Positions 1 to 34,513 of a DNA stretch of 64,000 nucleotides are shown piece after piece. Origin of the DNA: Mycoplasma sp. CAG:776 (lineage in GTDB: Bacteria; Bacillota_I; Bacilli_A; RF39; UBA660); assembly GCA_000438195.1 (NCBI GenBank), contig FR903066.1, positions 55,922 to 119,921 of the forward strand, read 5' to 3'. Position numbers and translations under genes: made by a program. The notes beneath the pieces are model-generated. The model was not told where the DNA came from, made no database searches, and saw only the letters and a list, made by a program, of their open reading frames with translations. Numbering within the stretch: position 1 is the stretch's first letter; every line of letters starts with the position of its first letter.

Positions 1-1029
1 AAGCTCTTCTATAGAATATAAATCAGTAATTTGAGCAGAAGAATTTTTTATTCCCAGCTCTTTTCCAAAATCAATTTTAAGTTGATAGGCTTTTTTCTTT
101 GCCTCAGGAAATTCCTTTGCTTCAACAATTGTTCCCACCCGAATATCTAACTTCAAGAAATCTAGAAAAGTAACAACAGAATCATTTCGAATCTTTTTTA
201 TGGCTTCTGGTATACACTGAACTGTATCACTAGCAATCATTCCAATATCTGTATTTTTCTCTTGAGCAATTTCTCCTGCTAAACCATTTAATAAAACTCC
301 GGCACTAATAGTTAAAAGATTAAAATCTTGATAAGCAAGCATCCCAGCCAAAATTCCTGATAAAACATCCCCACTTCCGCTTGTAGCCATTCCAGCACCA
401 CCATAACTAATGGTATAAGTCTCTTTACCATCACTCACTATAGTCGTATGACCTTTAAGTAGAAGAATGACCTGATATTCCTGAGCAAAAGATTTAACGA
501 GTTCAAAATTACGTTCTTTAATTTCTGTAATATCTAAACCCGTTAAACGGGAAAATTCTTTCAAATGTGGAGTCAAAATAATTTTAGCTTTACTTGTTTT
601 CAACCATTCCAAATAACCAACCAAAGTATTTAAACCATCAGCATCAATTACTATTTTTCCTTCAAAATTTTCCAAAATAAATCTTAAAATAGATAAATGC
701 TCCTCATTAGAACTCCATCCCATGCCAATAGCTAAAACATCTAAATCATAAATAGCCTTTTTAATATCTTCCAAATAATAATAAGGATATAATGTTTGTT
801 CCAACAAACAAGGTACAATAGAAGAAACTATATTTTCAGGAACAATTACTCTCACTAATCCACATCCGCTTCGAAGAGAACTTAAACTCATATAAGCAAG
901 TTTAATTGCTCCACTATATTTTATAGAACCACCAAGTATACCCACTTTTCCAAAATTACCTTTATGAGTATCATCTTCTCTTTTTTCAAATAATTCTTGA
1001 ACATCTCGGATCCTAATTTTTCTTATCAT
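1..1029 (-). CDS. NAD(P)H-hydrate dehydratase (YjeF_C/Nnr type) fused to a C-terminal CsaA/EMAP-like tRNA-binding domain; 3' end lies outside the window
   Basis: Not in the ORF track because it runs off the edge. My reverse translation from ATG at 1029 gives [35 protein letters not shown]...[15 protein letters not shown], the carbohydrate-kinase-type NAD(P)HX dehydratase motifs. It continues in frame into ...[50 protein letters not shown], a CsaA-type OB fold. The frame is open to position 1. Confidence 0.8.
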
Positions 1030-1107
1030 ACATATCTTCCTTTATAAAAACTATAACACAAAACGAATAAACTTGTAAATATAATAAAACTGTGATATAT
1101 TAATCAT

Positions 1108-1172
1108 GTAAGTGTTATCCAGTTTGGGTAACGCCTGCAAAATGTTTTTGGGCGCTACTTAGCGCTTTTTCT
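1108..1172 (+). ncRNA. Candidate cis-antisense sRNA (antitoxin) overlapping the 3' end of the minus-strand transcript
   Basis: Plus-strand promoter TTGTAA (1073-1078), 17 nt, TGaTATATT (extended -10, 1093-1101). A 5' hairpin GUUAUCC-AGUUU-GGGUAAC (1114-1132) is followed by an intrinsic terminator GCGCU-ACUU-AGCGC plus UUUUU (about 1152-1170). No plus-strand gene lies upstream that this terminator could serve. Confidence 0.35.
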
Positions 1173-1332
1173 TATATTCTTCTCTAATGATAGAAATGAG
1201 CATAATTATGATAATAAGTAATAGTTTTGTATCACTCAATTCACATCACCTGCTTTCGTAAAAACCCCCTGAATACAGAAGTAGTTTAAACTACTTACAA
1301 ATGAAGCAGGCGCTAAAATCAAACTAGATAAC
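1114..1332 (-). ncRNA. Structured transcript carrying the small ORF (toxin mRNA with 5'-3' fold-back); alternatively an independent rod-like sRNA
   Basis: Promoter TTGTCT-17 nt-CATAAT (plus coordinates 1369-1341) sits 8 nt upstream of G1332. The 5' arm GUUAUCUAGUUUG...GCGCCUGC pairs with the 3' arm GCAGGCGU...CAAACUGGAUAAC. The two imperfect positions are G:U on the minus strand but C:A/A:C on the plus strand, which favours the minus strand. The same 5' segment CGCCUGCUU can alternatively pair with AAGCAGGUG, covering the SD of the small ORF. Confidence 0.4.
1159..1239 (-). CDS. Candidate type I toxin peptide, 26 aa (MSDTKLLLIIIIMLISIIREEYKKKR)
   Basis: Hand translation of the minus strand. 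SD-like AGGTGA is followed by 6 nt and a TTG start at 1239; the TAA stop is at 1159-1161. The peptide has a short polar N-terminus, a 13-residue hydrophobic helix and a Lys/Arg-rich tail, the usual shape of Fst/TxpA/BsrG-like toxins. It is too short for the supplied ORF track. Confidence 0.45.
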   Translation of the reverse strand: MSDTKLLLIIIIMLISIIREEYKKKR

Positions 1333-1390
1333 AATAGTTTATTATGAATGATAACTCTTAAAAAGACAAAAAAACGTTCGACATAATTAG

Positions 1391-1417
1391 ACAAAAAAAT
1401 GAACTTCCTCGTTCATT
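1391..1417 (-). terminator. Rho-independent terminator after the BceB-like permease
   Basis: Minus strand reads ATGAAC-GAGGAA-GTTCAT followed by TTTTTTTGT, immediately after the stop codon at 1420-1422. Confidence 0.7.
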
Positions 1418-1419
1418 TT

Positions 1420-3483
1420 TTATTTATCTTTAATAATATTCTTACTACAATAATAAGTAATTAAAAAATAACCTCCATAAATAATAATCAAGAATATAGC
1501 TGTTATAGTAATAGACCGAACCATTGCCTCATCTCCAAAAGTCATCAAAATATAACGACAAAATAATAATCCAAAAATAGAATGAATAATAGCTAATAAT
1601 AGCGGAAATATAAAGAAAATTGCCACTTGCTTAAACAAAGCACGATGAATCAATTTCTCATCTGTTCCAATCTTTCGAAGCATATGATATCTCTCTTTAT
1701 TATCTGTACTTTCGGATAATTCTTTTAAAGCTAATATAGCGGCACTAGAAATAAGAAAAATAATACCTAAATATAAACCAATAAAAGTTACCATTGCACC
1801 TAACCCAACACTAGCTTCATAAATACTAATTTTAGTACTAGCATCAATATTCATTGTATTACTATTTTCATGTTCTCCTAAAGCTAAAATAGTATTTTCA
1901 ATTTCTTGTTTTCCTTCTTTACTATCTGCTTTATAATTAGCAAGTAAAATCTCCTTCTCTAAATAGGACTCATCAACAACCGAATCAGGAACTACAATAA
2001 TACCCGTATTAATATGATTACTAGAAATACGAATAAAACCATTTTGGCATTCTTCATATTTTGGAATTAAAGTATGACCAAAAATCGAAATAGAAGGTTT
2101 AGTTTTTAAAGCTTCATTACGCATTTGAATTACACTTTCAAAATCAGCTACAATAAGATACTCATTTTCATTCAAAGTATACTCTTGATTACCATATAGC
2201 TTTGCTACTTTGTTATAATCACTTAATTTCATAATTTCTTCTGGAGCATGATAAGTATAGATTGGATATTTTCTTTTAATTTCAGCTTCACTTTCTCCTA
2301 AAGTATCTAAAAAAGTAAACTCATCCGCTACATAAATATAAACCGTAGTAATATCATCAAAATAAGTATGAATATCAAAATCGACTTTATTTAAACTTTC
2401 TTCAATACTAAGAAAAGAATCTTGTCTTAATATCTCACTATAACCAGTTTGATTAGCATAATCCTCACTAATATTTCTCGTTTTAGAAAGTTCAATATCT
2501 ACTGGTACTAAACTAGTTAAATTGTCTGTCATCGAATTTTTCATGGATAAAGAACTAGATAAAACACAAATCGTAACAAAAAGCATCAAACAAATAACCG
2601 TCATCGAAAAAACTGTGGTATTTACTTTACTACTAATTTGTCTTAAAACAAAACTATTAAGTCCTTTATAATAAATTCTTTTAAAACTCATCACAATTTT
2701 TAAGATAAGTCCTGATAAAGACCAGAAAATAAGAAAAGTGGAAACACAGCCTAAAACAATAGGTAAAAAAATATCAGTAGCATTAGTAAGTGTATCAAGC
2801 CCAGCAGTTACTAAATAATAAGCATATCCAAGTATAAAAGAAGCAACAAGAAACACCATAGTACAAATAATCGGATTTTTCATTTTAACTTCTTCATTTC
2901 TTTTACTAGCTTGAAGTAAATCGATAAGTTTACAACGTCCTACACTAATCACATTAAATATCATCACAATTAAATAAATAATACCAAAGTAAATGATCGT
3001 TTTAATCATAGCACTACTAGAAAAAATAAAAGTAAAATTTGTAAGATCTGCTTCAAAACTATTAGCCACTAATACACTCATAAACTGAGAAGCTCCAATA
3101 CCAATCAAAAGCCCAATAACCAGTGAAATAATACCAATTACAAAAGTTTCTAAGAGCATAATTTTAGAAATATTTTTCTTACTCATACCTAAAGTAAGAT
3201 AAATACCAAATTCTTTATTTCGACGTTTCATCAAAAAACGACTAGCATAAATAATTAAAAATCCTAAAATAAAAGAGACAAAAACACTTACACCTGAAAG
3301 CATATTAACCATCAAATCAATAATATCTCGAGTATTTTTTGTAACATTAAGTAAAACCGTTTGACTATCAATTGCATTAAATACATAAAATATAGCCACA
3401 CCCAAAATTAAAGTAAAAAAATAAATCGCATAATCTTTAAAACTTTTTCGTATATTTTTTAAAGACAACTTAAAGAGCATCAT
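1420..3483 (-). CDS. BceB/VraG-type FtsX-family ABC permease (peptide-antibiotic sensing/detoxification type)
   Basis: 687 aa, about 10 predicted TM segments with a large extracytoplasmic domain between late TMs. N-terminus MMLFKLSLKNIRKSFKDYAIYF is typical of the family. It overlaps the upstream ATPase gene. Confidence 0.85.
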   Translation of the reverse strand: MMLFKLSLKNIRKSFKDYAIYFFTLILGVAIFYVFNAIDSQTVLLNVTKNTRDIIDLMVNMLSGVSVFVSFILGFLIIYASRFLMKRRNKEFGIYLTLGMSKKNISKIMLLETFVIGIISLVIGLLIGIGASQFMSVLVANSFEADLTNFTFIFSSSAMIKTIIYFGIIYLIVMIFNVISVGRCKLIDLLQASKRNEEVKMKNPIICTMVFLVASFILGYAYYLVTAGLDTLTNATDIFLPIVLGCVSTFLIFWSLSGLILKIVMSFKRIYYKGLNSFVLRQISSKVNTTVFSMTVICLMLFVTICVLSSSLSMKNSMTDNLTSLVPVDIELSKTRNISEDYANQTGYSEILRQDSFLSIEESLNKVDFDIHTYFDDITTVYIYVADEFTFLDTLGESEAEIKRKYPIYTYHAPEEIMKLSDYNKVAKLYGNQEYTLNENEYLIVADFESVIQMRNEALKTKPSISIFGHTLIPKYEECQNGFIRISSNHINTGIIVVPDSVVDESYLEKEILLANYKADSKEGKQEIENTILALGEHENSNTMNIDASTKISIYEASVGLGAMVTFIGLYLGIIFLISSAAILALKELSESTDNKERYHMLRKIGTDEKLIHRALFKQVAIFFIFPLLLAIIHSIFGLLFCRYILMTFGDEAMVRSITITAIFLIIIYGGYFLITYYCSKNIIKDK

Positions 3484-4237
3484 TTAAATCTCCTCCAAGT
3501 ACAGTCACAACATCAATTATTTCATCAAAGAATTCTTTACGAGATTTATCTGCTTTTATTAATTCATGAAACACTTTACCATCTTTAATAAAAATAACCC
3601 TAGTCGCATAAGAAGCACTAAAAGCATCATGCGTAACCATCAAAATAGTAGTATGAAGTTCGGTATTTAAGTAATTAAAACTTTCCAGTAACATTCTTGA
3701 TGATTTACTATCTAATGCCCCAGTTGGTTCATCGGCTAAAACTAACTTAGGATTAGTAATAATTGCTCTAGCACTAGCAATTCTTTGTTTTTCTCCACCA
3801 CTCATTTGATAAGGATATTTATTTAAGATAGCCTTAATATTAAGTCGACTAGCAATTTCTGTTATCTTTTTATCAATTAACTTAAAAGGAACATTTTGAA
3901 TAGATAATGCCAGAGCAATATTTTCATATCCCGTAAGCGTATCTAACAAATTAAAATCTTGAAAAATAAATCCAAGTTCTTCTCTTCGAAAACGATTTAA
4001 ATTACTTCCTTTTAAAGTAGTAATGTCTTCTTGATTTACATAAATATGCCCACTGGTAACTTTATCTATAGTAGAAATACAATTAAGAAGTGTTGTTTTG
4101 CCACTACCACTTGCTCCCATAATAGCAACAAACTCTCCCTTATTTACACTAAAACTAATATTATCAATCGCTTTTGTTAAGTTTGATTTATTCCCATAAC
4201 ACTTTTCAATTTTTTCTATTTTTAAAATTTCTTCCAT
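3470..4237 (-). CDS. BceA-type ABC transporter ATP-binding protein
   Basis: Walker A GASGSGKTT, signature MSGGEKQR, Walker B LVLADEPTGALD. I moved the start to MEEILKIEK (ATG 4237), which has a GAAAGGA SD 7 nt upstream. The 17 upstream codons in the track look like read-in. Confidence 0.9.
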   Translation of the reverse strand: MEEILKIEKIEKCYGNKSNLTKAIDNISFSVNKGEFVAIMGASGSGKTTLLNCISTIDKVTSGHIYVNQEDITTLKGSNLNRFRREELGFIFQDFNLLDTLTGYENIALALSIQNVPFKLIDKKITEIASRLNIKAILNKYPYQMSGGEKQRIASARAIITNPKLVLADEPTGALDSKSSRMLLESFNYLNTELHTTILMVTHDAFSASYATRVIFIKDGKVFHELIKADKSRKEFFDEIIDVVTVLGGDLNDAL

Positions 4238-4307
4238 AAAATCTGTCCTTTCAAAATTTATTATATAATAAAAGAACGAAAAAATCATTCGTTCAATCTT
4301 ACTTAAC

Positions 4308-4321
4308 CTTACAGTTTTGTA
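4308..4321. promoter_or_regulatory. BceR-like response-regulator box TTACA-GTTT-TGTAA upstream of the ABC operon
   Basis: Perfect 5-4-5 inverted repeat about 70-85 nt upstream of the ATPase start. It matches the TNACA-N4-TGTAA type site described for BceR-family regulators (recalled from memory). A TATAAT element lies between it and the start codon. Confidence 0.5.
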
Positions 4322-4383
4322 ACTTAAACACCCCCACTACAAATAAATTACAATAAATACAGACAACCTCACAAGTAATTCTT

Positions 4384-4498
4384 CTTCATTCATATTAATA
4401 TAACTTTTTTCTTACTTCTTTCCCTTTTAATAACTAATTTCAAATCCAATAATCCCTACTAATAAAATAATTATTCCCATTAACATTATAGTTTTCAT
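4384..4498 (-). pseudogene. Truncated duplicate of the 5' end of the neighbouring 266-aa gene
   Basis: Minus strand encodes MKTIMLMGIIILLVGIIGFEISY*. Compare MKNKVLMGITALLVGVIGFEIYY at 5310. The nucleotide block (c/t)atattaatataacttttttct is shared between 4391-4412 and 5191-5212. Confidence 0.6.
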
Positions 4499-4509
4499 AA
4501 TCAAAACTC

Positions 4510-5310
4510 CTAACATGCAGCTCCAGAAGTTTCCAAAATCTCATATTGATTAATAACTTTATATTCTAGCTTGTTATTATTAATTGTATAAACTCTTTCC
4601 TCCATATAATCACATGTATAATATAAATTATATATCTTATTTCCTTCAATTTCACTTCTAATCTTATTATCATCATCCAAAGTATCTATGTAGAAATTAT
4701 TTGAATACCATACACTTTCATTTTCTAAAACAACACTTTGTCCTTGATAAACTACATTCAAATAGCCAATATAATCCCAATTTTGATTAAAAATATTATA
4801 TTTTATTCCTACTCCCCCTGCTGGAGGTAAAGAATAATCTTGAACAATCAAATAATTAATTCCATCAATTCCTGGAAAAATAATAAAATTATTTTCATTA
4901 AAATATCGTGCAATAAAATCGACATAACTATTAGGAGGAATAGTATCATACCAAACACTAAATAAATAACTATCTCCTAAAGTTGACTCAATATCCCAAT
5001 ACCCTACTCCTTCATTAATTTCAAAGGTAATGTCAAACTCTTTCTTCTCACCATTTAAAACCATTTCATATTCTTGAATAATTTGATTACCATTTTCTTT
5101 AGTATTAACAAGTTTTACATAATCTTCTACTTTATCTGGATTATTCTCTAATGGTAAATCTTCTTCTTTATTGTTCTCTTGTTCCCCACTTATATTAATA
5201 TAACTTTTTTCTTTTTCGCTATTCTCTGAATAACTAAAAATATAATAGATTTCAAATCCAATAACACCCACTAATAAAGCAGTAATTCCCATTAACACTT
5301 TATTTTTCAT
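4510..5310 (-). CDS. Hypothetical N-terminally anchored/secreted protein
   Basis: 266-aa ORF with one N-terminal hydrophobic helix and no motif I recognise. An extended -10 TGTATAAT lies just upstream. It sits between the TCS and the ABC genes. Confidence 0.6.
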   Translation of the reverse strand: MKNKVLMGITALLVGVIGFEIYYIFSYSENSEKEKSYINISGEQENNKEEDLPLENNPDKVEDYVKLVNTKENGNQIIQEYEMVLNGEKKEFDITFEINEGVGYWDIESTLGDSYLFSVWYDTIPPNSYVDFIARYFNENNFIIFPGIDGINYLIVQDYSLPPAGGVGIKYNIFNQNWDYIGYLNVVYQGQSVVLENESVWYSNNFYIDTLDDDNKIRSEIEGNKIYNLYYTCDYMEERVYTINNNKLEYKVINQYEILETSGAAC

Positions 5311-5368
5311 AACACCAACTCTATTCTACTTTAAATTATACAAAAAATATGGAATAAACTCAATATTT

Positions 5369-6391
5369 TTATTCCATATTACGAACCTCTTTATAAAATA
5401 AATTTTCATCAAAAACAATAATAACTTTAGTATACTCTCCTTCTTTTGATTCAATTTCTAATTTGTGCCCTAACTTCTTACATAATTGATCAACAATATA
5501 TAAACCCATGCCAGTTGAACCGGGAACCTTTCTTCCATTTTGACCAGTAAAAGTTTTCTTAAAAACTCTGCCTAGATCACTTTTAGGAATCCCCATTCCA
5601 TTATCCAATATTTCTAAAATAATTTGTTGTTCCTTATGATAAGCTTTTATTTCTATTTTTTTATCTAAACCATCTTTCATATACTTAATGCTATTACTAA
5701 TAATTTGATTCATCATAAACTCTAACCATTTATAATCAGTTAACACTTTTAATTTTCCAACATCACTAATTATTTCAATTTGTTTTTCAAGCAAAACATC
5801 TTTATTTTTAAGCATAACTTCTCGAATAACTTTATTTAAATCTACTTCTTTAATAATATAATCATTCTGTGTATTCTCACTTCGAATATAGTAAAGTATT
5901 TGTTCTAAATATCCATCAATTTTATGAATTTCTCCCACTAATACTTTATCTGTTTTCTTATTATGAGTATATAAAGATAAAGCTGATAAAGGTATTTTAA
6001 CTTCATGAATCCATAACTCCACATATTCTTTAAAGTCATTCATTTTTTCTTTATAATCATGAATATTCTCATTCATCGATTTATTAATTTCATATAACAT
6101 TTGATAAAAAAGTTCTCCTTCTAAAAAATTAGGATTTTTAACTAATTCACAAATAAGATATTTTTCTTTTAATAAATCTAGTTTTACTCGCACATCTCGG
6201 TAAAAAAACACTTTTCTCAAATAATCATATAAAAAAATAAATAAGAAAAGTAAAAAATAAATAATCGAAAAAGCAACTTGAAAATCAACAACAATTTTAA
6301 AACCAATCATAAAAGATAATAAAACAAAATAAGCTACAATAATAAAGAAAAATATCCAAAATTTATCTTTTAAATAATCACTTAAAGTCAT
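5369..6391 (-). CDS. BceS-like intramembrane-sensing histidine kinase
   Basis: Two N-terminal TM helices with almost no loop, H-box IHEVKIPLSAL, and N/G boxes NSIKY, DNGMGIP, GMGLY. It overlaps the regulator gene by 4 nt. Confidence 0.85.
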   Translation of the reverse strand: MTLSDYLKDKFWIFFFIIVAYFVLLSFMIGFKIVVDFQVAFSIIYFLLFLFIFLYDYLRKVFFYRDVRVKLDLLKEKYLICELVKNPNFLEGELFYQMLYEINKSMNENIHDYKEKMNDFKEYVELWIHEVKIPLSALSLYTHNKKTDKVLVGEIHKIDGYLEQILYYIRSENTQNDYIIKEVDLNKVIREVMLKNKDVLLEKQIEIISDVGKLKVLTDYKWLEFMMNQIISNSIKYMKDGLDKKIEIKAYHKEQQIILEILDNGMGIPKSDLGRVFKKTFTGQNGRKVPGSTGMGLYIVDQLCKKLGHKLEIESKEGEYTKVIIVFDENLFYKEVRNME

Positions 6392-7062
6392 AATAAAATA
6401 TACCCTTGTCCTTTTCTCGTTTCAATCGCATCTTCTATTCCCAACTCTCGAAATTTACTTCTAAGTCTACTAATATTCACAGTTAAAGCATTATCATTAA
6501 TATATTCTTCATTATTCCAAAGTTCTGTCATTAATTCATCACGCATCACAATTTTCCCCTTTGCCTCATATAAATAAAGAAAAATAATCATTTCATTTTT
6601 CGTAAGAATAACTTCTTCTTCATCCTTTTTTACAATACCTTTCTTTACATCAATAATTAAATTATGATAATGAATAACATCCATAATATTATTTTCTAAT
6701 CGTTTTAATACAGCTTGTATTCTAAGTAATAAAATAGTAGGATGATAAGGCTTTGTAATATAATCATCTGCCCCATAACTCATAGATAAAACTTCATCTA
6801 TCTCACCTATTTTACTCGTTACCATAATAACTGGTATACTACTAACTTTTCTTAAATTCTTTAATAACACTTCTCCATTCATATAAGGAATATTAATATC
6901 AAGTAAAATTAAATCTGGAAGAACTTGCAAAATATCTTCCAACATATTTTGATATTTTTCTAAAAGAACAACTTCATAATTAGCATTACTAAGTAATTCC
7001 TTTAATTCATTTCGAATATTTTCATCATCTTCAATAATTAAAATCTTTTTCATATCCATCAC
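6388..7062 (-). CDS. OmpR-family response regulator (BceR-like)
   Basis: Receiver motifs ILIIEDD...LILLDINIP...TSK plus a winged-helix C-terminus ...TRKGQGYIL. Confidence 0.9.
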   Translation of the reverse strand: MMDMKKILIIEDDENIRNELKELLSNANYEVVLLEKYQNMLEDILQVLPDLILLDINIPYMNGEVLLKNLRKVSSIPVIMVTSKIGEIDEVLSMSYGADDYITKPYHPTILLLRIQAVLKRLENNIMDVIHYHNLIIDVKKGIVKKDEEEVILTKNEMIIFLYLYEAKGKIVMRDELMTELWNNEEYINDNALTVNISRLRSKFRELGIEDAIETRKGQGYILL

Positions 7063-7281
7063 ATTTCAAGTATATCACATTTACATACTTCCATCATTAA
7101 ATATTTACTATCTTTCTTATAATAAAATTATATTTATAACAACTAATCCTTCTAATAAATAGATTTCAGCTTTAAATTGTTTTTTATATTTTCTTTACCT
7201 TTGAACAAAAAAACAATTCATCTTATTATGATACATATTAGCGAACTACACTCATTTTATTTTAAAATAATATCTTTACTT

Positions 7282-8289
7282 TTACTGCATCACATCATCA
7301 TGCATTTTACTTTTAGGAAATATAATATGAACTCTTGTATATTCTTGATATTTTGATTCAATATTTACTTCAATATCTAGTCTTAAACTTAATTTTTTAA
7401 CTAAATAAAGACCTATCCCTGTTGCATAACTTTTCTTTCGATTAGAACCCGTAAACCCTTTATCAAATACTCTTGGTAAATCCGAAAAACGAATTCCACA
7501 TCCATTATCTTCAATAATAAGTTCCACTTGATTATTTTTTGTCATGCTATAAATTTCTAGCTTTTTTTCTTTCTTATCAAAATATTTTATAGAATTCCCA
7601 ATAATTTGTTGAAGAATAAATAAAATCCATTTTTCATCCGTATAAACAAAATGCTCTAAATCATGAACATTCAAAATAATATGACTCGCTAAAAAGGAAT
7701 CTTTATATTTTAGCATCAACGTATGGACAAGAGAAGAAAGTTTTATTTTTTTCACAAAATAATCTTTTTCAGTATTATCACTTCTCGCATAATATAAAAC
7801 TTGCTCCACATAATCTTCAATTTTTTCTACTTGTCTTTTCAAACTTTGATCTCGATTATTATCAAAATATAAAGCTAAAGCTGCAATAGGTGTTTTAATT
7901 TCATGAGCAAAACTTTCAATATATTCTTGATAATCCTCTTTTTCTTGTTCTATTCTAGTAATTTTATCATTCATAGATTTACAAGCTTCTTTTAAAACAT
8001 AATAATAAGGATAAACATCAACTGAATAATCTTTAGGAATAACCTCAGAAATATAATATTTGTCTTCTAATTTATCACAACACCGAATTATTTCTAATGC
8101 TTTCTTTTTCTTAAAGTAAAAAGAAAAAAATAAATAACTAAAAGAAAAAAAGATTAAAATCAAAGATAATATTAACGCAATAAATAATGGGATTTCTAGC
8201 AAATAAAAAAGAAGAAAAAGAACAATACTAAATGAAAAGTGAAAAATAAGAAAAGAAATATTTTTCTCTAAAAAATTTCCAAAACTCAT
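7282..8289 (-). CDS. Second BceS-like intramembrane-sensing histidine kinase
   Basis: Two N-terminal TM helices, H-box AHEIKTPIAAL, then DNGCGIR and GIGLYLV. Confidence 0.85.
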   Translation of the reverse strand: MSFGNFLEKNISFLIFHFSFSIVLFLLFYLLEIPLFIALILSLILIFFSFSYLFFSFYFKKKKALEIIRCCDKLEDKYYISEVIPKDYSVDVYPYYYVLKEACKSMNDKITRIEQEKEDYQEYIESFAHEIKTPIAALALYFDNNRDQSLKRQVEKIEDYVEQVLYYARSDNTEKDYFVKKIKLSSLVHTLMLKYKDSFLASHIILNVHDLEHFVYTDEKWILFILQQIIGNSIKYFDKKEKKLEIYSMTKNNQVELIIEDNGCGIRFSDLPRVFDKGFTGSNRKKSYATGIGLYLVKKLSLRLDIEVNIESKYQEYTRVHIIFPKSKMHDDVMQ

Positions 8290-8945
8290 ATAAAGTATCC
8301 AACTCCTCTTTTAGTTTTTACCAAATCACTTAAATCAATATCTTCTAGTTTTTTTCGTAAACGATTAATATTTACGAGTAAAATTGTTTCATCTAAATAA
8401 TATTGGTCATTCCATAAAAATTCAATTAATTTCTCTTTACTTAATACCACCCCAACGTTTAAAAAAAGGTAATATAATATTCGAAATTCATTTCTTGTTA
8501 ATTCCACTTCTTTATCTTGAAAACGCACTTTTGATAAATGTAAATCCAAAGTAACATCATGAACTTTTAGTTCCTTATAACGAACTGGATCATTAAGTTT
8601 TAATGCTCTTCTAATTTTTTCTAACAAAATATATTTATTATAAGGTTTAGTAACAAAATCATCCCCACCAACTAAAAGACTATTTAATTCATCTTCTTCC
8701 GTATTTCTGCTTGTAACAAAAATAATGGGTGTTTGTCTCTTCTTTTTAATTTCCCGACAAATTTGAAATCCATTTTGATTAGGAAGATTAATATCAAGTA
8801 ACATCAAATCACAATCTTTGGTTAAAATATCTTCTATAATTGAAGAAAAATTAGTAAGTGTTTCTACTTCATAATTTTCATGTTCTAATAATATTTTCAA
8901 TTCTTGAGCTATCTTTAAATCATCTTCCACAACTAACAATCTCAT
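8286..8945 (-). CDS. Second OmpR-family response regulator
   Basis: MRLLVVEDD...LMLLDINLP...TSR plus winged helix ...TKRGVGYFI. It overlaps both neighbours by 4 nt. Confidence 0.9.
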   Translation of the reverse strand: MRLLVVEDDLKIAQELKILLEHENYEVETLTNFSSIIEDILTKDCDLMLLDINLPNQNGFQICREIKKKRQTPIIFVTSRNTEEDELNSLLVGGDDFVTKPYNKYILLEKIRRALKLNDPVRYKELKVHDVTLDLHLSKVRFQDKEVELTRNEFRILYYLFLNVGVVLSKEKLIEFLWNDQYYLDETILLVNINRLRKKLEDIDLSDLVKTKRGVGYFI

Positions 8946-28165: not shown

Positions 28166-28242
28166 GTCCTCGTAGCTCAGTAGGATAGAGCAACTGCCTC
28201 CTAAGCAGTAGGTCGTTGGTTCGACTCCAATCGAGGACGCCA
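28166..28242 (+). tRNA. tRNA-Arg (anticodon CCU), CCA encoded
   Basis: Acceptor GTCCTCG/CGAGGAC, D arm GCTC...GAGC, anticodon stem ACTGC/GCAGT with loop CTCCTAA (anticodon CCT), T arm GTTGG-TTCGACT-CCAAT, discriminator G, then CCA. Confidence 0.9.
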
Positions 28243-34286: not shown

Positions 34287-34480
34287 ATAAAAAAAGATAG
34301 CACCAAAGGGTGCATAAATGCACGGTACCACCTTTTATTTCACTTAAATTTTTAACGTATTACATACGGGTTTTTAAAAACCAGCTCCCAAGCAACCTTC
34401 CAATACCTTCAATATTCTATTCCACCACCCTAGAACTCTCTAAAAAATCCAGTACTGTACTCCTCTTGTTCATCGCTTTT
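34287..34480 (-). promoter_or_regulatory. T-box riboswitch leader, specifier GUU (Val), controlling NUDIX-valS
   Basis: Minus-strand elements in order:
- promoter TTGAAA-17-TAGAAT (34517-34489)
- GA motif GCGAUGA
- AGAGAG bulge
- distal GGUGGUGGAA
- specifier loop GAAG-GUU-G next to the CAAG/CUUG helix (GUU = 34394-34396)
- T-box AAAAGGUGGUACCGUGC
- terminator GCACC-CUUU-GGUGC plus UAUCUUUUUU. Confidence 0.85.
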
Positions 34481-34513
34481 ATACAAGTATTCTATCAAAA
34501 TTTAAAATATTTT

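Follow-up and report, generated by a model that had tools for sequence, protein, structure and literature searches.

We analyzed a 64,000-nucleotide (nt) stretch of DNA from Mycoplasma sp. CAG:776 (assembly GCA_000438195.1, contig FR903066.1, positions 55,922 to 119,921 of the forward strand; 27% G+C), referred to here as the window, and propose that its positions 1073-1393 are probably a self-contained module of a new type I toxin-antitoxin family in low-GC, Clostridia-like gut bacteria. From the minus strand the module would produce a folded mRNA for a 26-amino-acid (aa) peptide, the putative toxin, and from the plus strand a convergent antisense RNA, the putative antitoxin. It spans ~320 bp, with the distal of two Spo0A-box-like heptamers (0A boxes) and the -35 element of the antisense promoter as its edges, and it is housed in the 388-nt gap between an FtsX-type ABC permease gene (1420..3483, minus) and an nnr-like gene (start 1031, minus). 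A preliminary description of the sequence had argued that this gap, put there at 390 nt, was not empty and held a candidate type I locus at 1073-1369. The proposal was supported in every available computational test and its edge at 1073 stood, while the other edge had to be moved out to 1393 to take in the conserved 0A boxes, which had been missed. The predicted features are given below with the evidence for each.

1159..1239, minus: 26-aa open reading frame (ORF) MSDTKLLLIIIIMLISIIREEYKKKR with a TTG start, putative toxin (substitution pattern, conserved start position)
1246..1251, minus: Shine-Dalgarno (SD) sequence AGGUGA, 6 nt upstream of the start codon (GGTGA invariant)
1110..1335, minus: predicted core of the peptide (toxin) mRNA, from an inferred start at ~1335-1332 through the 3' clamp arm (fold, strand asymmetry)
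1306..1332, minus: 5' clamp arm GUUAUCUAGUUUGAUUUUAGCGCCUGC (GUUAUCUAGUUUG...UAGCGCCUGC) (minimum free energy (MFE) fold, duplex energies, alignment)
1297..1305, minus: anti-SD UUCAUUUGU, of which UCAUU (1304..1300) pairs with GGUGA of the SD (MFE, alignment)
1279..1296, minus: 7-bp leader hairpin AAGUAGU-UUAA-ACUACUU, conserved and lying within the anti-SD/SD helix (MFE, alignment)
1114..1138, minus: 3' clamp arm GCAGGCGUUACCCAAACUGGAUAAC, also the complement of the 5' hairpin of the antisense RNA (MFE, duplex energies)
1108-1171, plus: predicted 64-nt antisense RNA, putative antitoxin (promoter, fold, terminator)
1150-1171, plus only: intrinsic terminator GGGCGCUACUUAGCGC followed by U5CUU (hairpin, U-run)
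1073..1101, plus: antisense promoter TTGTAA-17-TGaTATATT with an extended -10, at the right module edge (motif, conservation)
1341..1369, minus: sigma-A-type promoter of the peptide (toxin) mRNA, TTGTCT-17-CATAAT (motif, conservation in copies)
1377..1393, minus: two Spo0A-box-like heptamers 3 bp apart, TGTCTAA-TTA-TGTCGAA (left edge of the module)
1394..1421, no single strand: bidirectional terminator (A-run, hairpin, T-run) after the FtsX permease gene (sequence, hairpin alignment)

The coding sequence and the distribution of the module

Copies of the module were recovered along two routes. Nnr homologues led to syntenic permease-nnr loci, and one of these, L020, from a sister species whose Nnr is 90% identical, was found by synteny to carry the module. 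A degenerate peptide pattern (start, x, [DE], x, [KR], ten NTN codons, x, two NTN codons, [KR]EE) matched six metagenome loci, and all six were whole-module homologues, that is, the similar peptide/antisense pairs in relatives for which the preliminary description had suggested a search. Together with the window and L020, these loci make 8 copies with six distinct sequence variants. On the metagenome contigs no gene is called at the 26-aa ORF.

The SD (1251..1246) and the TTG start codon (1239..1237) that were first described as opening MSDTKLLLIIIIMLISIIREEYKKKR are borne out by the comparison. In the homologues the start codon keeps its position and is only ever TTG, ATG or GTG (a weak start in 7 of 8 copies), and the GGTGA of the SD and its 5-6-nt spacing to the start are conserved. 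Ten codons of the ORF vary by synonymous changes only and three by conservative replacement, with synonymous divergence (pS) of 0.44-0.52 against nonsynonymous divergence (pN) of 0-0.054, a pN/pS of <=0.1. The ORF of L020 is intact, starts with ATG and carries 10 substitutions, 7 synonymous and 3 conservative (I/V, R/K, Y/H); this comparison with the window is free of ascertainment bias and yielded P = 9e-4 when 0.2 was taken as the synonymous share under neutrality. Judged by its substitutions, the ORF is clearly under strong purifying selection and truly coding. The peptide combines a hydrophobic core of 13 residues (mean Kyte-Doolittle 3.7) with a tail of charge +3 and is predicted to be a single-pass membrane peptide, a single helix with a basic tail. 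Such a small (<60 aa), hydrophobic, membrane-targeted product is what is expected of a type I toxin. The leader also holds a conserved SD-like CAGGGGGU run between the hairpin and the true SD (1262-1269 and homologues), and a start-stop (AUG-UAA or AUG-UGA) overlaps the SD immediately ahead of the real start codon. A tblastn look-alike of the peptide at 57721-57792 was rejected as the C-terminus of a 260-aa permease.

The comparison of loci indicates that the module is autonomous and patchy, and is gained or lost between close relatives. Copies of the window type, the L045/L047/L050 type and the L046/L048 type share 79-90% identity in pairwise BLAST, and between contexts the homology covers only about -155 to +165 around the start codon (window 1393..1074), with unrelated flanks on either side. 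The module occupies at least four unrelated genomic contexts on low-GC gut Clostridia-like contigs (an FtsW/RodA side, a prfA-prmC side and others). At the FtsX/nnr locus, it is present in the window, L001, L002, L049 and L020 and absent from L023, L024, L026 and L027. The permease also occurs on human-gut metagenome contigs with an intergenic region identical to that of the window, and in relatives with Nnr proteins 77%, 67%, 66% and 65% identical the permease-nnr gap measures 69, 285 (unrelated sequence), 98 and 52 nt, respectively, and lacks the module. This presence and absence in syntenic relatives marks the module as an insertion/deletion polymorphism and not as a leader of nnr. At a second locus, that of prmC and a gene for a 196-aa protein, the module is present in L046, L048 and L058, and the site is empty in L051 (neighbor protein 93% identical), L053-56 and L059. 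A decayed remnant at the same locus (L052:108-173) retains some of the 3' arm along with the antisense -10 region and has lost the peptide gene and its promoter, i.e. the toxin half.

Neither the 64-kb window nor 400 kb of retrieved loci contained a second copy. The degenerate pattern had zero matches in viral contigs, five viral-contig scans gave 0 true matches (16 matches to a 17-mer were due to chance), and blastn with the element and tblastn with the peptide against plasmids and phages gave none, or chance and low-complexity matches. Three contigs begin inside the module (L021:1-158, L022:1-158 and L058:1-93), as assembly breaks would if it were multi-copy there. Upstream of the module in L045 (950-1075, minus-strand reading) are three ~22-nt direct repeats, GTAACATTTTC[A/T]CTGAAAATT, ~40 nt apart, which resemble iterons or operators and are absent from L047 despite the shared module and downstream flank. 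In L047 (5844-6940) the FtsW/RodA/SpoVE-family gene that adjoins the module is split into ORFs of 158 and 193 aa by a frameshift, as a pseudogene or by an assembly error. L059 carries an IS-type DDE transposase gene (DDE_Tnp_1, 156-1391) upstream of the 196-aa gene, where relatives have the module or an empty site.

Folding of the predicted peptide mRNA and antisense RNA

The predicted peptide mRNA is closed by a long-range clamp in which its first 27 nt pair with a segment ~165 nt downstream (1332..1306 with 1138..1114, ~24 bp). As noticed in the preliminary description, the two imperfect pairs of the clamp are G:U on the minus strand; they would be A:C on the opposite strand. The 230-nt minus-strand RNA had an MFE of -74.7 kcal/mol compared to -43.6 +/- 4.4 for shuffled sequences (z = -7.1; 0 of 200 shuffles as good), and the MFE structure closes with the 5'-3' helix and pairs UCAUUUGU over the SD. 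The arm-arm duplex reached -35.8 against -9.3 +/- 2.8 for shuffled arms, and cognate arms (-35.8 and -40.1 kcal/mol) paired somewhat better than arms swapped between types (-32.6 and -33.5 kcal/mol). We recovered the clamp in the ORF-strand MFE structure of all six variants; the ORF strand was 16-25 kcal/mol more stable than the opposite strand, and the arm-arm duplex 5-13 kcal/mol better on it. Among six one-sided transitions in the clamp, five result in G:U on the ORF strand, which is suggestive only (P = 0.11). All 7 sequences keep the anti-SD/SD pairs unchanged, and 97.3% of the alignment cells are paired in the proposed structure, compared to 33-53% when the partners were slid. The clamp helix first proposed, the SD and the anti-SD recur in all six variants and the structure is, from these alignments, conserved and strand-specific, but covariation was not statistically supported and does not prove it.

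The SD was also described as being buried by an alternative pairing of CGCCUGCUU with AAGCAGGUG, likened to the refolding of hok, fst and bsrG mRNAs. The SD is indeed paired in the fold, but its universally conserved partner is UCAUU. The alternative pairing did form in modeled clamp-open states of the window and L045, but it is not conserved in every variant, with three mismatches each in L046 and L048 and a single one in L050. SD/anti-SD sequestration and a 5'-3' long-distance interaction, one or both of which are expected of a type I toxin mRNA by the T1TAdb descriptors (PMC8594479), are both seen in the predicted fold.

The plus-strand promoter at 1073..1101 agrees with that of the preliminary description and is conserved; TGnTATATT is invariant in all copies, and the -35 element is TTGTAA or TTGTTT. 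The predicted 64-nt RNA, previously estimated at ~65 nt, would be complementary over its whole length to the 3'-most 64 nt of the peptide mRNA, covering the clamp arm, the linker, the terminator hairpin, the stop codon and, as proposed, the last codons (three of them). Its fold consists of a 5' hairpin of 10 bp and not 7 bp as first described, a single-stranded linker of ~11 nt and the hairpin and U-run of the terminator. Its 5' end, GUUAUCCAGUUUGGGUAACGCCUGC, nearly repeats the sequence of the mRNA's 5' arm (GUUAUCUAGUUUG..UAGCGCCUGC). The terminator operates on the plus strand without any protein gene upstream on that strand, as had been pointed out, and two terminator-like sites were found against 0.1 expected. 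The homologues predict antisense RNAs of 63-76 nt with the same architecture; in the L045/L046 group the terminator hairpin is longer and of different sequence, and is still followed by U6-7. In 8 of 8 copies, a gene can therefore be predicted for an antisense RNA encoded in cis to the toxin mRNA.

Promoters, Spo0A boxes and genomic surroundings

The minus-strand promoter of the preliminary description (1369..1341) is likewise conserved, with an invariant -10 element, TTCATAAT, and TTGnnT as the -35 element in all copies. The window alone would not have established it, since the 11 promoter hexamers found against 4.2 expected are not significant in AT-rich DNA; we take the promoters as real because they are conserved in the homologues. 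The antisense promoter has an extended -10 element and the peptide promoter does not, which, together with the weak start codons, is consistent with tight repression of the peptide. At 1050-1079 the -35 element of the nnr promoter (TTTACA, minus) and that of the antisense promoter (TTGTAA, plus) lie back to back and share bases; L020 has 15 extra nt between the two, making the overlap specific to the species of the window.

Upstream of the peptide promoter, the two 0A boxes end 7 nt from the -35 element in the window and 7-9 nt from it across the copies. The cores GTC[G/T]AA are kept in 8 of 8 copies, and the 3-nt spacer is variable; the homologues have TGTCGAA-TTT-AGTCGAA, CGTCGAA-CTT-TGTCGAA and TGTCGAA-ATT-TGTCGAA. 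TGTCGAA is the 0A box consensus, bound by Spo0A of Bacillus and C. difficile through contacts to G2, C4 and G5 (PMC3485338), and Spo0A sites made up of two boxes 3 bp apart are known (PMC2731898). Two boxes with at most one mismatch to the consensus, such as are expected in the promoter region of a Spo0A-regulated gene, are present in all copies. The tandem motif at 1377..1393 is the only match in the window, and single boxes at other positions were of no help as a cross-check. We consider the boxes credible because they are conserved across the copies and form the edge of the module. Spo0A~P probably modulates synthesis of the peptide mRNA at entry into stationary phase or sporulation, as far as the motif and its conservation can tell. 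As at spoIIE- and spoIIG-type promoters, boxes upstream of the -35 element fit activation better than repression, and from the position of the boxes at about -45 to -61 we infer activation as the sign of the effect. We also considered control of the module through these direct repeats by the neighboring BceRS/BceAB-like system, and dropped it; the repeats travel into unrelated contexts and match the Spo0A box.

The bidirectional terminator at 1394..1421 lies directly upstream of the module and outside its conserved extent. A non-homologous A7-hairpin-T7 occupies the equivalent position in L045 and L047. Non-homologous terminators upstream of the boxes in the window and in L045/L047 are consistent with insulation of a dangerous promoter, and the one in the window probably shields the peptide promoter from read-through.

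Beyond this terminator, a BceAB-like cluster for peptide-antibiotic sensing and detoxification extends over 1420-9916 (minus). It comprises the 687-aa FtsX permease, an ABC ATPase, a 266-aa protein of unknown function, a histidine kinase and an OmpR-type regulator, followed by a second kinase/regulator pair and a Peptidase_S11 D-Ala-D-Ala carboxypeptidase. The nnr-like gene on the other side (window 1-1031, minus; full gene L001:5455-6636) is a fusion of Carb_kinase (NAD(P)HX dehydratase) with a C-terminal tRNA_bind domain, and a scan of genome contigs with the Nnr protein gave only unrelated proteins with a C-terminal tRNA_bind domain (Bacteroidota and others). Elsewhere in the window are a gene for a Fic/DOC-family protein (11461-12273, minus) and a 274-aa ORF of the ADP-ribosyltransferase exoenzyme family (49886-50710, minus; PF03496, E = 1.5e-16).

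Evaluation of the type I reading

Several results weigh against reading the module as a type I system. No base pair shows a clean double-sided compensatory change, the shuffle control was not significant, and the divergence among the copies is only 3-21%. The SD stayed paired in the closed, antisense-bound and 3'-truncated models (probability of being unpaired 0.03-0.46), so that no ON state was found, and no minus-strand terminator follows the 3' arm to define the 3' end of the mRNA. Searches with three variants of the peptide in Pfam and NCBIfam (E <= 10), PHROGs and PADLOC returned no match and hence no detectable homology to known toxins, and the searchable literature contains no mention of its sequence. 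The six metagenome copies were found by means of the peptide pattern, which copies with a broken ORF would escape; conservation extends to what the pattern leaves free, namely codons 2, 4 and 16 and the choice of hydrophobic residue. L046 and L048 carry a 1-nt deletion in an A-run that changes the C-terminal tail to KKVASPRA, and these copies, with their changed tail and clamp mismatches, may be decaying. The tandem 0A motif is not significant in the window by itself (1 found against 0.24 expected), and Spo0A binding is predicted from this motif alone.

The main rival is a non-toxic small membrane protein, for example a stationary-phase or sporulation peptide under Spo0A control, with a cis-antisense RNA as a tuner and with no addiction or killing. 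The clearly coding ORF and the 0A boxes, which suggest a developmental role, would suit such a gene, and neither SD sequestration nor antisense RNAs are exclusive to toxins. We nevertheless consider it unlikely. The patchy, multi-context, sharply bounded distribution, with gain and loss, is typical of selfish toxin-antitoxin modules and not of housekeeping or sporulation genes; weak starts, anti-SD, clamp, strong convergent promoter and upstream insulating terminator stack up several layers of repression, and it is the peptide half that was lost from the remnant in L052. Far less probable is a miniature mobile or recombination element in which the 27-bp inverted repeats (1306-1332 and 1114-1138) act as DNA and the ORF and promoters are incidental. 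The repeats do flank ~165 bp, the element is polymorphic for presence at several loci, and L021, L022 and L058 break inside it as contigs do at repeats. Yet the homology runs 45-60 bp past both repeats to stop at promoter elements, the imperfect positions are G:U on one strand only with five of six one-sided transitions keeping that asymmetry, the substitutions between the repeats follow codon position, and neither a transposase nor a target-site duplication was seen.

The remaining alternatives take the minus-strand RNA as non-coding or as a leader. A structured non-coding RNA (6S-like or another small RNA) with an ORF by chance would explain the long terminal helix around a multi-branched RNA of ~220 nt and its very low folding z-score, and the preliminary description had stated that a conserved structure around an unconserved ORF would point that way. 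The opposite was found, since the ORF has a coding signature (10 synonymous-only against 3 conservative codons, a start confined to three start codons, an invariant SD and spacing) and no Rfam family, 6S included, was matched; a 6S-like RNA is excluded, and chance as the origin of the ORF is highly improbable. We give hardly any credence to the module as a leader or attenuator acting in cis on the downstream nnr-like gene, or as an element at the 3' side of the ABC permease operon. The module does lie on the same strand as both genes, with no minus-strand terminator before nnr, so that read-through is possible; against this, relatives with the same synteny do without the module, nnr has its own extended -10 promoter there, and elsewhere the module adjoins unrelated genes (FtsW/RodA, prmC-side genes and others).

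Rfam searches at permissive thresholds (the locus and the divergent homologue L045) and at gathering thresholds (the whole window) gave nothing relevant, and no antitoxin family (RatA, SR4-type, Sok, Sib, Rdl, IstR, SprA1as and others) came near its gathering score in the window or L045. The sole gathering-level matches in the window were a T-box leader (34303-34482, minus, 110 bits) and a tRNA gene (28166-28239, plus). Typical of Gram-positive type I systems are an antisense RNA that covers the last part of the ORF from the 3' side, an SD held by an anti-SD, and long-distance pairing between the 5' and 3' regions of the mRNA (PMC8594479), and the match of the module to this layout supports the type I reading. 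Closest in organization are bsrG/SR4 and txpA/RatA of Bacillus subtilis, each with a small hydrophobic peptide whose C-terminus is charged, an antisense RNA running convergently over the 3' end of the mRNA and the end of the ORF, and an SD sequestered in the mRNA, from which duplex formation followed by RNase III cleavage is expected. SR4 also has a long-range effect on SD pairing, as the preliminary description proposed for the module. However, there is no sequence similarity, those peptides have 38-59 aa against 26 here, and our predicted antisense RNA is shorter (~64 nt) and has the 3' clamp arm within its target; the module also has 0A boxes and no recognizable prophage around it.

The par system (Fst/RNAI-RNAII of Enterococcus faecalis pAD1) is also convergent, pairing a toxin mRNA of ~200 nt or more with an antitoxin RNA of ~65 nt across a shared terminator region, and has a 5' structure sequestering the SD and a hydrophobic peptide with a charged tail. 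It differs in using direct repeats at both 5' ends, outside the overlap, whereas in the module the 5' ends are near-identical (a DNA inverted repeat) and not complementary, pairing is confined to the 64-nt overlap, the terminator functions on one strand only, and the Fst family (PF13955) is not matched. With hok/Sok of plasmid R1 and aapA1/IsoA1 of Helicobacter pylori the module shares an mRNA kept inert by a 5'-3' end lock and an anti-SD on the SD. There, the antisense RNA targets the 5' part or initiation region of a 3'-processed active mRNA; here it is complementary to the 3' end and not to the 5' leader, and 3' trimming would remove its target. There is moreover no mok-like overlapping frame, no homology (no Hok/Gef match, PF01848, in Pfam), and the host lineage is Gram-positive. 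In Clostridia, C. difficile had the only experimentally validated type I systems according to a 2019 review (PMC6563280). These (CD2517.1-RCd8, CD0956.2-RCd10, CD0977.1-RCd11 and others) likewise join a small membrane toxin with a charged C-terminus to a cis-antisense antitoxin, but the toxins, of 34-59 aa, are encoded close to CRISPR arrays or within prophages and have SigB-type promoters (PMC6563280). By comparison with this published description, the module is set apart by its 26-aa peptide, chromosomal intergenic position, sigma-A-like promoter with 0A boxes and 5'-3' clamp.

We therefore favor the type I toxin-antitoxin reading with reasonable but incomplete confidence, and the following mechanism would suit it. 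The sigma-A-type promoter preceded by the two 0A boxes would drive the minus-strand peptide mRNA, which would be stabilized by its terminal clamp and kept translationally inert by sequestration of the SD; the peptide, once made, would damage the membrane. An abundant antisense RNA would nucleate at the complementary single-stranded linker, invade the 3' arm and open the clamp, its 5' end competing with the 5' arm of the mRNA, and the resulting 64-bp duplex would be cut by RNase III, destroying the mRNA. RNase III cleavage of the antisense duplex is the mode of action of RatA on txpA and of SR4 on bsrG. A more specific version, in which Spo0A~P switches the toxin mRNA on and the antitoxin mimics the 5' end of the mRNA to displace the clamp, exposing the mRNA to RNase III and a 5' exonuclease and not blocking the ribosome-binding site, is conceivable but doubtful. 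If it holds, a selfish, RNA-controlled killer module would be tied to the cell-fate decision governed by Spo0A in gut Clostridia, for instance in the removal or arrest of cells that start but do not complete sporulation, or in mother-cell lysis.

The module would represent a new family of a known kind, unusual in its conserved Spo0A boxes and in an antisense RNA that targets the 3' arm of the mRNA's own clamp. By joining a 5'-3' lock of the hok/aapA kind to a 3'-overlapping antitoxin in the Gram-positive style, with the antisense RNA aimed at the lock, it would be a mechanistic variant, and the tandem 0A boxes predict a direct link of Spo0A to the toxin promoter. The naturally occurring filled, empty and remnant alleles provide a clean test case for the spread and decay of such modules, and cassettes of this type could be used in Clostridium genetics as counter-selection markers or for plasmid stabilization. 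The type I reading would add to the low-GC, Clostridia-like gut bacteria other than C. difficile a compact toxin-antitoxin family that, with an ORF of 26 aa, is invisible to standard annotation.

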